Source of the DNA: Methanobacteriota archaeon
Lineage (GTDB): Archaea > Thermoplasmatota > Thermoplasmata > UBA10834
Assembly: GCA_020347645.1 (NCBI GenBank)
Contig: CP070736.1
Location: 6,451-70,450 of the forward strand
DNA length: 64,000 nucleotides
Direction of reading: 5' to 3'
The translations under genes and the position numbers were made by a program. The number at the start of each line of letters is the position of its first letter. The first letter of the stretch is position 1. The notes below the pieces were generated by a model. It saw only the letters and a list, made by a program, of their open reading frames with translations, was not told the origin of the DNA and did not search any database. Shown one piece after another: positions 8,067 to 14,237 of the stretch.

Positions 8067-9524
8067 TTGACAAATGCTGTTTTCAACCCACTGACTACTG
8101 CTCAGGAAGACTACGTGCATGAGACTTCGTTGCGCATACTCGAAGAAGTAGGAATAAAAGTCACTAGCGTACCGGTATTGAGCATGCTCAAGGAGCACGG
8201 CGCAGATGTCGATAGCAGGGCAGAGATTGCGAAATTGCCCGAATCGCTAGTGGTCGAGGCACTGTCCAATGCGCCAAAAGAATTCATGATGTGTGGGAGA
8301 GACGAGGCTCACAACCTCAAACTCCCCGCGGATTATCCCCAGGGAGTGAACGACGGTCAGCCGACGTACATGTGGGACATCGATTCACAGAGCAAGAGGT
8401 CATCGACTATAGATGACCTCATCGACATCGCAATCGTGTGTGACGCAATGCCTGAGGTCGACCTGTTTTGGCCTGAGGTGGTTGCGACGGACCTTCCGCC
8501 GGAGGTATCCAATTGCCACGAGTTCGTGGCTTCGCTGTTCTTCACAGGAAAGCACGTTCAGCATGGTGCGGGCAATCTCAAGGATGCCAGATTTCTAATC
8601 GACGCTGCTGCTGCTATAGTCGGTTCGGAGAAGGAACTGGCTCGCAAAACGATTATATCGATTACGCACACGCCTATGACGCCTCTGCGTTACGAGGCGG
8701 GAGATGTTGACGCCGTTGTGGAATTCGCCAAGGCCGGTCTGCCGGTGGTGCATCTCTCGATGGCGATATCGGGTTCGGTAGCCCCAGTGTCTTTGGTTGG
8801 CACCGTGGCCCTCGTCAACGCTGAGAACCTGGCAGGAGCGGTCATATCTGAACTGGCCGCGCCCGGCGCTCCTATTCTCTACAGCTCTGAGTCGGGACCG
8901 ATGGATATGCGGACCGGAGTATTCCTGTCTGGATCCACCGAAGGTTCGTTGATCAATGCAGCTGGATGTCAGATGGCACGGAGGTACAGACTGCCTTCTC
9001 AGGTGGGCGGCATTGCCGCCTCTGGATGCAGGCCAGGGTTCGAAGTCGGATACCAGAAAGCGATAAGCGGTCTCCTGCCAGCAATGGCGGGCGCGGACCA
9101 GGTGGTCGGAATAGGCGGAATCGAGCGTTCGGGTTGCGAGTCATTGGAACAGATAATAATGGACTGTGAACTGTGGCGGAACATAATCCGGGCTTGGAAA
9201 GGAATAGAAGTTAACGAAGCGACCATGGCGTTCGATGCTATTGCCAGAGTAGGTCCTGGTGGTTACTTCATGAAAGATCCTCACACGCTTAGACACTTCA
9301 GAAGCGAGATATTGCTCCCCGAGATAGCCATGCTTCCTGCGGATGGCAGGAATGGCGGTGAACCTATGAATGCTGCTGCTGTGAAGGAAGCCAAGAAGTT
9401 GTTGGCAGAGCACAGGTGCACTCCTCTGGAACCGAATATCCAGAAGGATATCATCGCGCTTCTTCGTCTCTACGATAAGAGCATCATAGACCGTGTCGTC
9501 CCAACAGACTACCTCGAACGCTGA
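8067..9524 (+). CDS. Trimethylamine methyltransferase (MttB) superfamily protein, non-pyrrolysine
   Basis: LSMAISGSVAPVSLVGTVALVNAENLAG, GAPILY and MARRYRLP motifs. Uninterrupted 485-aa ORF with no internal amber codon. Confidence 0.88.
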   Translation: MTNAVFNPLTTAQEDYVHETSLRILEEVGIKVTSVPVLSMLKEHGADVDSRAEIAKLPESLVVEALSNAPKEFMMCGRDEAHNLKLPADYPQGVNDGQPTYMWDIDSQSKRSSTIDDLIDIAIVCDAMPEVDLFWPEVVATDLPPEVSNCHEFVASLFFTGKHVQHGAGNLKDARFLIDAAAAIVGSEKELARKTIISITHTPMTPLRYEAGDVDAVVEFAKAGLPVVHLSMAISGSVAPVSLVGTVALVNAENLAGAVISELAAPGAPILYSSESGPMDMRTGVFLSGSTEGSLINAAGCQMARRYRLPSQVGGIAASGCRPGFEVGYQKAISGLLPAMAGADQVVGIGGIERSGCESLEQIIMDCELWRNIIRAWKGIEVNEATMAFDAIARVGPGGYFMKDPHTLRHFRSEILLPEIAMLPADGRNGGEPMNAAAVKEAKKLLAEHRCTPLEPNIQKDIIALLRLYDKSIIDRVVPTDYLER

Positions 9525-9609
9525 TAAATCAATCAGTCGGTGTACTGAGTAATTGCGAATACGCGTCTCACTCTCAAGGTTTAAGTGTGAGACATTGCTT
9601 TACACACTC

Positions 9610-10743
9610 ATGTCTGAGATCCCTGGCTTCTTCAACGGAAAGGGGTATTCCCAGTCATTGGTCAAGGCCGCGAAGGCGGCTGTCAAAGATGTTCTCGCCG
9701 TAAGAAAGGACGAACACCTCCTGATTATTTCGAACCCCAATCCAGGAACGCGCGACATAGCAATGGCATTGTTTGATGCATCTTTAGGGGCCAAAGCATC
9801 CCCAGTCCTGGCATTTCAAGGGGAGAAAGGGCAATTCGATTACACTGAGGATGAGATCATCAAGGCGCTGTCCGCCGAGCCCCAGATCGTGCTATCTATA
9901 AGCAAAGACAGATTGGGTTTGGATCGATACGGTCTGAAGCACGGTTACGAAGGCAAACGACGCTATGACAACCTGTTCGATATGCTGCATTGCGAAGGGA
10001 AGATGAGGGCTTTTTGGTCTCCAGGGATCACAACCGACACGTTTTCCAGAACTGTAGCGATTGACTACGGAGTGCTCAGAAGCGATTGCAGGCGCCTGGT
10101 AAGGGAGATGAAAAAGGCGGAGTCGATCAGGGTGACATCTCCCTCGGGGACAGACATCACGGTAGGCGTCAAGGGTCGCACCCCTAAGCCAGATGATGGC
10201 GATTTCAGACGTCCTGGAGGTGCTGGCAACATCCCATCGGGTGAGGTGTACGTTTCGCCAACGATTGGAACGACGGACGGGGTGATAGTCTTTGATGGAT
10301 CAATAGCTCTGAACGATGGCGAGGTCATGATACGAAAGCCCATAGTCGTCGAGGTGAAGAAAGGATTTGCGAAGTCTGTCTCTGGTGGTTCAGAAGCTGA
10401 TATGCTACGGAAATCGATTCGCTCAGGCGAGCTCAATGCCAATAGACTGGGCAGAAACGGGGAAATAAAGGCATCTCAAGCCAGGAAGTATCATCGAAAT
10501 GCAAGAGCTATTGGAGAGCTCGGTGTAGGGTTGAATAGAAAGGCGAAGATAGTGGCAAATATGCTGGAGGACGAGAAGGTTTACGGGACTTGCCACTTCG
10601 CGATCGGCAGCAACTATGACGGAGACGCGGACGCTCTGATTCATCTTGATGGTATCGTCAAGTCTCCAACCATAACACTTGTCGGTGGCAAGTACCGCAG
10701 CGAGAAACAAGTAATGGCCAGCGGTAAGCTCGTCTGGGATTGA
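9610..10743 (+). CDS. Peptidase M29 family aminopeptidase
   Basis: GNIPSGEVY, IGELGVGLN, LEDEKVYGTCHFAIGSN and IHLDG motifs. Confidence 0.9.
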   Translation: MSEIPGFFNGKGYSQSLVKAAKAAVKDVLAVRKDEHLLIISNPNPGTRDIAMALFDASLGAKASPVLAFQGEKGQFDYTEDEIIKALSAEPQIVLSISKDRLGLDRYGLKHGYEGKRRYDNLFDMLHCEGKMRAFWSPGITTDTFSRTVAIDYGVLRSDCRRLVREMKKAESIRVTSPSGTDITVGVKGRTPKPDDGDFRRPGGAGNIPSGEVYVSPTIGTTDGVIVFDGSIALNDGEVMIRKPIVVEVKKGFAKSVSGGSEADMLRKSIRSGELNANRLGRNGEIKASQARKYHRNARAIGELGVGLNRKAKIVANMLEDEKVYGTCHFAIGSNYDGDADALIHLDGIVKSPTITLVGGKYRSEKQVMASGKLVWD

Positions 10744-10780: not shown

Positions 10781-11569
10781 ATGGAGGAGATAATCAGACC
10801 TGCCGAAGTCGATGTAGATCGGTTCGATAGACCTCGTCGCGTAGGCTGGCTGGACCTGGATGCCGTGTTCCGTGCCAAGCTGCTCATGGTTGGGGCGGGA
10901 GCTCTCGGAAACGAGGTCGGCAAGAATCTGGTGCTCTCGGGCTTCAGAGATATCACAATTGTGGATATGGATAGAGTCGCCATGTCCAACCTCAGCAGGT
11001 GCATGTTCTTCGAGAAGGGTGACGCAGAAGGGTCTATTCTCAAGGCCGAGGCGTTGCGCGATGGTATGAACTCCTTGGCGGACAAAGGCGCTGTAAAGGC
11101 AGTAGCATGTTCAATCGAGGAGTGTTCCACCGACCTTTTTGAGAAGAGTACGGCCGTTCTCGGATGTTTGGACAACATAATCGCAAGGATGTACACCAAC
11201 GCCCAATCGTACCATGCAGGCAAGCCGTACATTGACGGAGGAATGGAAGGATTCGCCGGAAGGGTCATGATAGTCCGACCGCCCGGCGGCGCATGCCTGC
11301 AATGCGGAATGAATCGATCTCATGCGAAGATGGCTAACCTGCGATTCAGCTGCACTGGAAGCGAAACCACCCTCTACGAGCCCAGGTTGGCTTCGGAGAT
11401 TACGACAACAAGCCTCCTAGCTAGCGTCATGGTGCGGGAAATCATCAAACACGTGTCTGGGAGAAACGATCTCATGCTATCGAATGCATTCTTCTACGAC
11501 GGTAGGACGAACCGCGCCGAGGAGTTCGAAGTACCTCTGAACCCTGAGTGCCCGGTGCATCTCCAGTGA
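10781..11569 (+). CDS. Ubiquitin-activating enzyme E1-like (ThiF/UBA family)
   Basis: VGAGALGNE nucleotide loop, D-x-D-x4-SNLSR, CLDNxxAR, IDGG, CLQC (C172/C175) plus C-terminal CPVH Zn ligands, and candidate catalytic Cys191 (FSCT). Confidence 0.93.
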   Translation: MEEIIRPAEVDVDRFDRPRRVGWLDLDAVFRAKLLMVGAGALGNEVGKNLVLSGFRDITIVDMDRVAMSNLSRCMFFEKGDAEGSILKAEALRDGMNSLADKGAVKAVACSIEECSTDLFEKSTAVLGCLDNIIARMYTNAQSYHAGKPYIDGGMEGFAGRVMIVRPPGGACLQCGMNRSHAKMANLRFSCTGSETTLYEPRLASEITTTSLLASVMVREIIKHVSGRNDLMLSNAFFYDGRTNRAEEFEVPLNPECPVHLQ

Positions 11570-11623: not shown

Positions 11624-11872
11624 GTGGTTCTTCTGCCCTTCAGGATCAAGGTCAAGAACGCGGAGACGGGCGCGACCGTGGAAATGGAGCTTGAGCAAAA
11701 CAACACTGTCGATGAAGTGATAGAGAGTGCCGCAACCTTCTGGAACAAAGAGATGGGAACCTACGTTGTGAGAAAGGGCAAGAAGGTGCTGAGGGGTACT
11801 CAGGCGCTGTCCGATGCCGGTGTGAGGGAGGACGACATGCTCGAGCTAGTTCCAGACCCAGAGGGGGGATAG
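11624..11872 (+). CDS. Ubiquitin-like beta-grasp protein with C-terminal diglycine
   Basis: About 80 aa. Ub-like pattern RIKVK..TG.TVEMEL...TVDEV, GKKVL, LSDAGV, LELV, ending PDPEGG-stop. Lies between E1 and E2. Start is GTG 11624 or possibly CTG 11633. Confidence 0.9.
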   Translation: MVLLPFRIKVKNAETGATVEMELEQNNTVDEVIESAATFWNKEMGTYVVRKGKKVLRGTQALSDAGVREDDMLELVPDPEGG

Positions 11873-12406
11873 TTGACTGCCGCCCTTCCTCTTGACATTC
11901 TGAGAATCCGGCTCAAGAACGAAGTGGAGACTTGTCGACGAGAGCTCTCTCATCACATATCGGTCTCTGACAACTCGCTGACTTCATTCCCCGTTCTGAT
12001 TGGGGTTACCTTTCTGCGTGTTCCAGGGCCATCGTGGGAGGATGGAAGAATCGTGCACAGGTACGCCCATGGAATGAGCTTGTTGATTACGCAGGAATAC
12101 CCAGCAGAAACACCAATAGTCAAATGGCGAACCCCGATCTTCCACCCTAATATAATGCCGCCTGAGGATGGCGGATACGTGTGTACAAAACTTCTTGAGA
12201 ATTGGGGGTTCAACTCGACGCTGCTGTCGTTCATAAGAGGAGTGGAGTGGCTCTTGATAAACCCGAACCCAGCCAACCCATTCGGCAACGACACATGCAC
12301 GCGTGCGGCTGCATATTTCAACAAGAGAGGGTACAAGCCTCCTTCGACTATCGAAAGGGACGTTGGCAGGATAAGGATAATCGGTGAGGCCCGTGACTCG
12401 GCCTAG
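11873..12406 (+). CDS. Ubiquitin-conjugating enzyme E2 (UBC fold)
   Basis: EYP..TP....TPIFHPNI, catalytic Cys104 (VCTKLL), conserved Trp, LLINPNPANP. TTG start directly abuts the Ubl stop. Confidence 0.93.
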   Translation: MTAALPLDILRIRLKNEVETCRRELSHHISVSDNSLTSFPVLIGVTFLRVPGPSWEDGRIVHRYAHGMSLLITQEYPAETPIVKWRTPIFHPNIMPPEDGGYVCTKLLENWGFNSTLLSFIRGVEWLLINPNPANPFGNDTCTRAAAYFNKRGYKPPSTIERDVGRIRIIGEARDSA

Positions 12407-13043
12407 AATCGTCGGAGAGACGAAAAGGCCAGTTCTTGAGCTACGGCCACCTTCTGCTACCAGACCGCACGAATGGTTGTCCGAAGACGCAGAGAGACGC
12501 TATAATGAGATCTGCACAACTGGAAGAGTCTTTGATATCTACTTTTCGTCCGTCGCAGAGAACAAGATACGGGAGCAGGCAGCAGGGGCGGCACCGATGA
12601 GACATGAAGTCATGGGGTTGTTGCTGGGCGAGGTCCGAATTTGGAAAAGCGAGATATACACTGTGGTAAGGGGTGTCAGTACGACAGACCTGAGAAGCTC
12701 ATCCGCAAATGTGAAGTTCGACCCCGAGGCTCTACCGAGACTATTCATCGATCTAGACTCTGCAAGATTCGATTATGTTGTAGTCGGCTGGTACCACTCG
12801 CATCCTGGGCACACGTGCTTCATGTCCAGGACCGATCTGAATACACAGCGATCCATATTCACTCAACCCTACCATTTTGCCCTGGTGATAGATCCGATCA
12901 ACATGGAAATCGAGGCGTTTAAAACCAGGGGAAATGGTTACGTCAGCGTTCCCTTCGCGATCGTGGATGGCGCGACTCTGAGGACGAGAAGGCTGAAGGC
13001 AGCGGACAGCCCAGCAGAACGCCAGATCGACGCTACGACTTGA
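12384..13043 (+). CDS. JAB/MPN+ (JAMM) metalloprotease, Rpn11/CSN5-like deubiquitinase
   Basis: EVMGLLLG and VVGWYHSHPGHTCFMSRTD (HxHx7Sx2D), TQ, ALVIDP. Confidence 0.93.
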   Translation: MRPVTRPRIVGETKRPVLELRPPSATRPHEWLSEDAERRYNEICTTGRVFDIYFSSVAENKIREQAAGAAPMRHEVMGLLLGEVRIWKSEIYTVVRGVSTTDLRSSSANVKFDPEALPRLFIDLDSARFDYVVVGWYHSHPGHTCFMSRTDLNTQRSIFTQPYHFALVIDPINMEIEAFKTRGNGYVSVPFAIVDGATLRTRRLKAADSPAERQIDATT

Positions 13044-13106: not shown

Positions 13107-14237
13107 GTGAACCCCAGATTCCCGAATATCGTCTTCGTGGCAATCGCATGCGTCATCATGACGACCACGGCGTTCTCAGAATTCAGGAGTGCCGGCTCAG
13201 AGGATTACGCTCTATTCGTAAGCGTCGATGATGCGAAAGTATGTTTCATCTCCGGCAACTTCAGCGTGGCAATAACTCGCGATTGGCCTCGGGTGATATT
13301 CAAACACGAGGAGGATCCATTCAGCCCGACATTCGAAGTCAGCTGCCCGCGCATGTACGGGCACAACGACACCGATGGCGACGGTCTCTTTGACCTTTCG
13401 GAGGCCACTTACACAATGTTCCTGGACTCAAATCACGTGGAGTGGAACATGACTTCGATAGAGCAGGGTTTCAATAACGAGCTGGGAGAATACGCAGCCT
13501 TTGGAATGGGGTCTTCGCTTAATGCCTACTTGGTTGAGAACAACGAAACGCTGGTTCTGTCTGACTGGGCGAGTCTGATGTTTTGGTTCTCTATCTCGGA
13601 GAAATCCGCTGAGTATACGAATTCTATGGGTTCCTATGTGATAGACGGTGGAACCCAGCTCAGGATGAACTTCTCGCTTTCTGTGAAAGACTACATCGAA
13701 ATGGACGCTCTCGTCCTTGAGCGGTTCTTGCAGGGCGGGGGATCAACCAATATGTTTCACCTAATCGAATCGACAGGCGACGATGAAGCCTACGTAACGA
13801 AGGTATCTGGAACGATTGACGAAAGAGAGTCCGAGGAGGCTATCATACATGAGTTCAGCTGCACGTCAGAACCTATGCAGGAGATACTCTTCGCAAAGGA
13901 GGATGGCATCGCCCAGGCGTTCTACCGATGGGATTCAAAGGCAATTTCTGATTATGCAGATAACACTTCGATATCTGACCTCGAATCATCCTATTTCACT
14001 ACAGGAAATGGTATGATGCTTCACTCTCGGCTCGAGATTGACAACCGCACGTTACAGGTCGCTCACGAGGCGAGCGTTGGATTGCTTGAAGCGGGATTCG
14101 TCGGCAGTGTGAGCGACTGGATTCGAGAATACTCTTGGTCGGTGCTGATTGTCTGCAGCGTGGCAATTGCACTAGTACTGATTCCGGTCTTCCTCCGTAG
14201 AGGACGAAAGGGACCACGCGAAAAGGAATCGAAGTGA
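13107..14237 (+). CDS. Hypothetical cell-surface protein with C-terminal membrane anchor
   Basis: Strong SD (AGGAGG), signal peptide, DTDGDGLFD Ca-binding-like loop, C-terminal TM helix and basic tail. Confidence 0.75.
   Translation: MNPRFPNIVFVAIACVIMTTTAFSEFRSAGSEDYALFVSVDDAKVCFISGNFSVAITRDWPRVIFKHEEDPFSPTFEVSCPRMYGHNDTDGDGLFDLSEATYTMFLDSNHVEWNMTSIEQGFNNELGEYAAFGMGSSLNAYLVENNETLVLSDWASLMFWFSISEKSAEYTNSMGSYVIDGGTQLRMNFSLSVKDYIEMDALVLERFLQGGGSTNMFHLIESTGDDEAYVTKVSGTIDERESEEAIIHEFSCTSEPMQEILFAKEDGIAQAFYRWDSKAISDYADNTSISDLESSYFTTGNGMMLHSRLEIDNRTLQVAHEASVGLLEAGFVGSVSDWIREYSWSVLIVCSVAIALVLIPVFLRRGRKGPREKESK

Follow-up and report, generated by a model that had tools for sequence, protein, structure and literature searches.

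[quoted passage not shown] Its gene comes first in a tight cluster of four, followed by genes for a ubiquitin-like protein (Ubl) with a Gly-Gly end, an E2 with an HPN motif and Cys104, and a JAMM protease; both the short architecture of the E1 and its association with this E2 recur among its archaeal relatives. Canonical eukaryotic E1s recruit their E2s via a C-terminal UFD. We consider it rather probable that the archaeal enzyme works as a MoeB-like homodimer which adenylates the Ubl, forms a thioester through Cys191, and charges an E2 that is docked directly on the adenylation domain.

The E1 gene, its operon and its genomic linkage to an E2

ThiF (PF00899) is the only Pfam domain in the E1, spanning residues 22-259 with E 7e-42 and a score of 143.6 bits (cut-off 28.1). 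The original prediction described an adenylation domain of MoeB/ThiF size with Uba-like motifs, and all of these motifs are found in the 262-residue translation, namely GALGNEVGKNL from residue 40, CLDNIIAR from residue 129 and DGGMEGFAG from residue 152. In a family alignment of 45 sequences, reaching down to ~30% identity, the invariant positions are the ATP-loop glycines, D62, N70, K88, D131, R136, D152, C172, C175, C191 and C257. Within the Gly-rich ATP loop G38-A-G-A-L-G43 (10892..10909, +), residues G38, G40, A41 and G43 are present in 45/45 sequences, and the equally invariant Asp131 of the CLDN motif (11171..11173, +), probably the Mg/adenylation aspartate, is presumably the counterpart of the catalytic Asp of MoeB and Uba1. 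An N-terminal RFDR motif is also conserved (R17 in 43/45), at what we take to be the position of the trans-acting arginine finger in MoeB. The zinc site, of the CxxC...CxxH type, is divided between C172-L-Q-C175 (11294..11305, +), in which both cysteines are invariant, and C257-P-V-H260 (11549..11560, +), in which C257 occurs in all 45 sequences and H260 in 44. The candidate thioester cysteine, Cys191 (codon TGC, 11351-11353, +), belongs to the crossover-loop motif R188-F-S-C191-T-G193 (11342..11359, +), the residues of which are retained to differing extents (C in 45, G in 43, S in 41, R in 39, and F and T each in 37 of the 45 sequences). As foreseen, this cysteine lies on the crossover loop after CLQC, between the first zinc CxxC and helix 207-225 of the AlphaFold2 (AF2) model, and the protein stops right after its CPVH site (residues 257-260), with only LQ before the stop codon.

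The Ubl gene (11624..11872, +) encodes an 82-residue beta-grasp protein, presumed to be the substrate of the E1, which ends in PDPEGG followed by a stop codon. The PDPxGG end is kept in 16/16 Ubl orthologues, and in Pfam the protein is ubiquitin-like and not ThiS/MoaD-like, on a weak match to the ubiquitin family (E 8e-4). The E2 (11873..12406, +; Pfam UQ_con, E 3.8e-12) has a UBC fold and is the sole UBC match in the source genome; the catalytic Cys104 ascribed to it in advance was located after the HPN motif. A selenocysteine-containing or otherwise recoded E2 was discounted, as the in-frame TGAs within E2 matches of one genus are the stop codons of the E2. The fourth gene (12384..13043, +; Pfam JAB, E 4.4e-11) overlaps that of the E2 by 23 nt, and encodes a JAMM/Rpn11-like metalloprotease. 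Flanking genes include an MttB-family methyltransferase homologue (8067-9524, +; Pfam E 9e-73) and an M29-type aminopeptidase (9553-10743, +), which lie just upstream of the operon, and neither of which is kept beside the operon in other genomes. On the 3' side of the JAMM gene, a 376-aa ORF (13107-14237, +) has no Pfam match and no tblastn match in 20 related loci; it has N- and C-terminal hydrophobic segments which, by eye, look membrane-spanning, and is probably outside the conserved system.

The order E1-Ubl-E2 is kept in 10 of 20 loci sampled across the phylum, with a JAMM match in eight of those ten. Roughly half of the lineages in this sample have the E1 and E2 genes apart, with the E2 encoded at another place in the genome; four genomes have it ~10 kb away from the E1 within one contig, and at locus L049, which was examined in full, the interval between E1 and E2 is a giant ORF. 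Linkage at the level of whole genomes is closer. In a sample of 300 phylum genomes, with orthologues called at E 1e-43 or better for the E1 and at E 1e-23 or better for the E2, 68 carry an E1 orthologue, 68 carry an E2 orthologue, and 67 are shared, each exception being an 81%-complete assembly. This co-occurrence is a strong association, for which no formal statistic is given because related genomes are not independent samples. The system is widespread in Thermoplasmatota, and apparently lacks an E3; a zf-RING_2 search of the source genome gave no match, and is a weak test since the control likewise matched nowhere. The operon was also considered as part of a defence island, a reading which was rejected as PADLOC gave only weak Cap2-type E1 matches (E ~1e-11) and weak JAB matches, and nothing for the Ubl or the E2.

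Two further features of the sampled loci deserve mention. Loci of genus g2 in family f2 (L035, L036 and L045-L047) have E1-Ubl-E2 and no adjacent JAMM match by tblastn, and the E1 and E2 of this genus are the most divergent orthologues (36-42% identity). A giant ORF of 2000-3155 aa, with no Pfam match, adjoins the E1 orthologue in L027, L029, L038, L041 and L049, and in the last of these (L049:1664-11131) it separates the E1 gene from those for Ubl, E2 and JAMM. Its product might have a part in handling the E2 or the substrate; among the possibilities are a scaffold of E3-like kind, a substrate, and an insertion unrelated to the system.

The source genome is a single contig of 1.42 Mb, scored 65% complete, and at that completeness it holds two ThiF-family genes, this E1 and a MoeB-like gene, so that there is no candidate for an inactive partner subunit of the E1. 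The MoeB-like gene (L001:1486-2235; G000:C1, ~1.31 Mb) encodes a 249-aa protein of orthodox MoeB/UbaA type with CxxC...CxxC (four zinc cysteines) and a crossover-loop Cys; it adjoins a gene that is ThiI-like by eye, and probably serves the sulfur-carrier role. Because this paralogue also has a crossover-loop Cys, Cys191 alone is no proof of thioester chemistry.

A short family and its longer relatives with a UFD-like domain

Short length without a UFD is a trait of this E1 family, and not the result of truncation. Searching 5.8 billion proteins yielded 736 E1 homologues; among the best 120, lengths run from 253 to 310 aa and identities from 56 to 100%, and the close homologues have the source names 'Thermoplasmata archaeon' or 'Thermoplasmatota archaeon'. 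In 32 of the 45 aligned family members the tail beyond CxxH amounts to 0-4 residues, and longer relatives, sought among longer proteins, were represented by a single distant match of 528 aa. A truncated or mis-called gene is ruled out by start and end positions that are conserved family-wide, and a chance ORF by the 736 homologues. Nor does stop read-through fuse the E1 to the downstream Ubl as a UFD: the two genes share a reading frame in the window, where a TGA and, nine codons on, a TAA lie between them, and their frames differ in other loci. The short family tails, these two in-frame stops and the point at which structural alignment ends agree with the earlier claim that the enzyme has no C-terminal UFD.

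The AF2 model of the E1 has an overall pLDDT of 86.9, with low confidence at the N-terminus, at residues 180-184 and at residues 190-201, the part of the crossover loop that contains Cys191; pLDDT is below 50 in the last of these, a stretch which is predicted to be flexible. Only ~30 residues separate C175 from helix 207-225, with no inserted Cys domain. By Foldseek and VIA-align, the top structural matches are E. coli MoeB and ThiF, level with UBA3 and Uba2. MoeB (1jw9_B) aligns over 229 of 240 residues (Z 31.0, rmsd 2.0 A), UBA3 (1tt5_D) and Uba2 score Z 30.2 and 29.1, and lower values were obtained for UBA5 (6h78_H, 27.6), Atg7 (27.4) and Uba1 (~27). Residue 262 of the model aligns with residue 348 of UBA3, 446 of Uba2, 919 of Schizosaccharomyces pombe Uba1 and 930 of Saccharomyces cerevisiae Uba1, and there the alignment stops. 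Presumably these are the positions at which the UFDs of those enzymes begin, and we therefore take the modelled E1 to stop at the adenylation/UFD junction of eukaryotic E1s. In a PDB sequence search the best matches are Uba2, UBA3 and Uba1 (E 5e-18 to 2e-16), below which rank MoeB (E 1.5e-13) and ThiF (E 4e-10), placing the E1, as judged by sequence, nearer to the active adenylation domains of eukaryotic E1s than to MoeB/ThiF. It also misses the curated NCBIfam equivalog cut-offs for ThiF (96 vs 275 bits), MoeB (68.6 vs 266) and UbaA (53.5 vs 450). The C-terminal half alone, searched against the PDB in order to align Cys191 with MoeB, ThiF and UBA5, returned no matches.

The next-nearest relatives (E ~1e-35) are ~400 aa long and 32-36% identical over the whole adenylation domain, and include one E1 from a Bryobacterales bacterium. 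These long-clade enzymes have in common with the short clade a short crossover loop, the RxSC Cys and the CxxC...CxxH site, and the counterpart of Cys191 is invariant among them (35/35); they add ~140 C-terminal residues with a CxxC...CxxC zinc ribbon. Long-clade E1s are best matched by eukaryotic E1s. The AF2 model of a long-clade E1 (overall pLDDT 89.7) has this extra domain confidently folded. Alignment by VIA-align runs through the UFDs of Uba1, UBA6, UBA7, Uba2 and UBA3, reaching residue 1012 of S. pombe Uba1, residue 535 of Uba2 and the end of UBA3, and takes in 300-315 residues with UFD-bearing E1s as against ~230 with MoeB; the rmsd to eukaryotic E1s is 6-8 A, which fits a differently oriented domain. 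We read the modelled C-terminal domain as UFD-like and as lying in the UFD position, which does not in itself prove homology. A profile of the domain, compared by sequence with the PDB, found no UFD. Its origin as a fused Ubl gene was rejected on an hhalign probability of 1.4% against the Ubl profile, sequence alone being a weak test of this point.

E2 and JAMM genes are linked to long-clade E1s in 54 of 80 metagenome loci, and the remainder are mostly short contigs. The original prediction overlooked this separate group of prokaryotic, E2-linked enzymes, and it is the contrast with their UFD-like domain that makes the missing UFD of the short clade informative. A quick maximum-likelihood tree separates the two (22 rows in the short clade and 32 in the long, each with SH-aLRT 99); its base is unresolved, with one long outgroup branch, and both loss and primary absence of the UFD fit. 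The long-clade type may also include the E1-like enzyme of Caldiarchaeum subterraneum, reconstituted in vitro in earlier work (PMC5654768).

Insertions occur in the crossover loop of some short-clade members. Proteins P0124 (315 aa) and P0130 (306 aa) have 24-30 residues inserted directly after the SC(T/F)G motif; those of P0124 form a zinc ribbon (Pfam Zn_ribbon_3, residues 194-218). It appears that the short-clade crossover loop tolerates insertions; it is in the same loop that canonical E1s house the Cys domain.

Proposed mechanism and competing explanations

We propose that the E1 acts as a homodimer similar to MoeB and ThiF, a view based on its MoeB-like fold, the conserved RFDR motif, and the absence from the genome of any gene for a partner adenylation subunit. 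Each protomer would bind ATP and the C-terminal Gly-Gly of the neighbouring Ubl to form Ubl-AMP, and Cys191, carried on the flexible crossover loop of ~30 residues, would attack the adenylate to yield an E1~Ubl thioester, from which the Ubl would pass to Cys104 of the UBC-type E2 of the operon. That the E1 charges this E2 is supported by inference from the operon, from the co-occurrence of the two genes (67/68) and from the invariance of Cys191; if it does so, then a route of E2 recruitment other than the UFD follows. Since UFD, Cys domain and C-terminal peptide extension are all missing from the enzyme, the E2 would be expected to dock on the adenylation domain itself, the likeliest site being the zinc-stiffened C-terminal region beside the crossover loop, in a manner resembling BilD. 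We regard BilD as the best precedent because the archaeal E1 has the same terminal zinc arrangement.

The catalytic role assigned to Cys191 in this scheme might be questioned on the grounds that BubCD, a homodimeric E1 without a catalytic Cys, still feeds its Ubl to an E2 (PMC11601596), and that a short crossover loop without a Cys domain provides little machinery for the active-site remodelling seen in canonical E1s. The E1 would then only adenylate, with Cys104 of the E2 attacking Ubl-AMP directly, as has been proposed for Bub systems, and Cys191 would be structural, regulatory or redox-related. We consider this unlikely: a cysteine that is invariant in two deep clades (45/45 and 35/35) is hard to explain without a catalytic role, and UBA5 and Atg7 use a catalytic Cys on such a crossover loop (PMC2888440; PMC12355090). 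It also seems improbable that the E1 depends on a helper for E2 recruitment, given that the window and 10/20 sampled loci contain only E1, Ubl and E2, together with JAMM in the window and in 8/10, and no extra conserved gene. The giant ORF, which adjoins the E1 in the several lineages listed above, could be such a helper, as could a second Ubl acting as a UFD in trans, in that the UFD itself adopts the ubiquitin fold and two Ubl sites would be present in a homodimer. Against these, the long-clade C-terminal domain and the Ubl have no sequence relationship by hhalign, and no RING was found in the genome, weak as that test is.

Very little probability attaches, in our judgement, to the view that the E1 charges no E2 at all, and instead has a role like that of UbaA, MoeB or ThiF, in E2-independent conjugation or in sulfur transfer, leaving the E2 for some other role. 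Its size and fold are indeed those of MoeB and ThiF (Z 30-31), and archaeal UbaA sustains SAMP conjugation without an E2. The family cut-offs for MoeB, ThiF and UbaA are nevertheless far from reached, a dedicated MoeB/UbaA-like paralogue is encoded elsewhere in the source genome, the Ubl resembles ubiquitin rather than ThiS or MoaD in Pfam, and the near-strict co-occurrence of E1 and E2 speaks against an E2-independent role. Charging of the E2 by a homodimeric, thioester-forming E1 remains our preferred reading.

Comparison with characterized E1s

To our knowledge, every E1 shown to charge an E2 has an extra part that holds the E2, be it a UFD (Uba1, Uba2 and UBA3), a peptide extension (UBA5), an N-terminal domain (Atg7) or a fusion (Cap2), and BilD has a second adenylation domain in addition to a CYS domain. 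Canonical Uba1, Uba2 and UBA3 have a UFD, an inserted Cys domain and an inactive partner, whereas the archaeal E1 lacks the first two and has no candidate partner in a genome scored 65% complete. The idea of a minimal, UFD-less E1 holds as regards architecture, and is less unusual than the original prediction implied, as the principle is already established in UBA4, UBA5 and Atg7 (PMC12355090), and, among bacteria, in BilD (PMC10557695), BubCD and Cap2 (PMC11601596).

UBA5 resembles the archaeal E1 in having a single ThiF/MoeB-like adenylation domain and a structural zinc, with no separate Cys domain and no UFD, and it is a homodimer, as we infer the archaeal enzyme to be, with a catalytic Cys located within or adjoining the crossover loop (PMC2888440; PMC12355090). 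UBA5, however, depends on a C-terminal extension of ~70 aa, with UFM1-interacting and UFC1-binding sequences, to bind the Ubl in trans and to recruit the E2 (PMC2888440; PMC12355090), whereas the archaeal E1 stops two residues past its zinc site. Further, Cys250 of UBA5 is at the start of a long helix, whereas Cys191 precedes its helix by 16 residues, and the partner E2 of UBA5, UFC1, is atypical, whereas the archaeal E2 is of the canonical HPN-Cys kind. A 2025 review described UBA5, at ~400 aa, as the 'most minimalist functional E1' (PMC12355090).

BilD, too, is without a UFD, and its chain terminates soon after a zinc site with two crossover-loop and two C-terminal ligands (PMC10557695), as that of the archaeal E1 does. 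The E2 of BilD is bound by a loop and a helix at the C-terminal end of the active adenylation domain, which are held by the zinc shared with the crossover loop, and the Type II BilABCD operon, like the archaeal one, comprises E1, E2, Ubl and JAMM protease, and no E3 (PMC10557695). Unlike the archaeal E1, with its single adenylation domain and bare crossover loop, BilD is a single-chain pseudo-dimer that joins an inactive to an active adenylation domain and carries a helical CYS domain of ~80 aa in that loop; moreover, Bil serves in antiphage defence and resides on mobile islands, whereas the archaeal operon is widespread across a phylum. BubCD shares with the archaeal E1 a ThiF-like domain and the lack of a UFD, and is a homodimer that binds its E2 directly; it is distinguished by fusion to a JAMM peptidase, the lack of a crossover-loop Cys, oxyester intermediates and a Ser-containing E2 (PMC11601596), whereas in the archaeal system JAMM is a separate gene and the cysteines of E1 and E2 are both kept. 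MoeB, ThiF and UbaA are similar to the archaeal E1 in size, fold, crossover-loop Cys and zinc site, and in the homodimeric design that we propose for it, but have no E2 partner, and their zinc site has four cysteines in place of the archaeal CxxC...CxxH.

In the literature that we searched, which left subscription journals largely outside, we found no account of this E1 family, nor of an E1 that lacks all accessory elements and has as its partners an E2 of the canonical HPN-Cys kind, a Ubl ending in GG and a protease resembling Rpn11. The search did find systems from Caldiarchaeum and from Asgard archaea, and one phylogeny makes passing mention of a 'Ca. Thermoplasmatota E2' clade (bioRxiv 10.1101/2023.07.25.550441). 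We tentatively suggest, with somewhat less than even confidence, that among self-sufficient, E2-charging E1s the short family is the smallest, a bare adenylation-domain homodimer with chains of 262 aa that would form a thioester on a loop Cys and load a canonical HPN-Cys E2 through direct contact with the adenylation domain. If it works as predicted, it would be the smallest E2-charging E1 described, and, at 262 aa and in the company of a eukaryote-like E2, a Ubl and an Rpn11-type protease, it would define the minimum for E1-to-E2 transthiolation. The archaeal system would be small and probably tractable for structural and kinetic work, and the short and UFD-bearing long clades offer a natural pair, with and without the domain, for testing what the UFD contributes. 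If true, the scheme may also show how E1 handed over to E2 at a stage preceding the acquisition of the UFD and the Cys domain.

Lastly, much more divergent adjacent E1/E2 pairs are present in two other genomes of the phylum, at G008:C24:26610-27706 and G150:C1:754396-755766 (loci L051 and L052), with E ~1e-21 to 1e-24 for the E1 and ~1e-10 for the E2, which suggests that Thermoplasmatota have E1-E2 systems of a second type.
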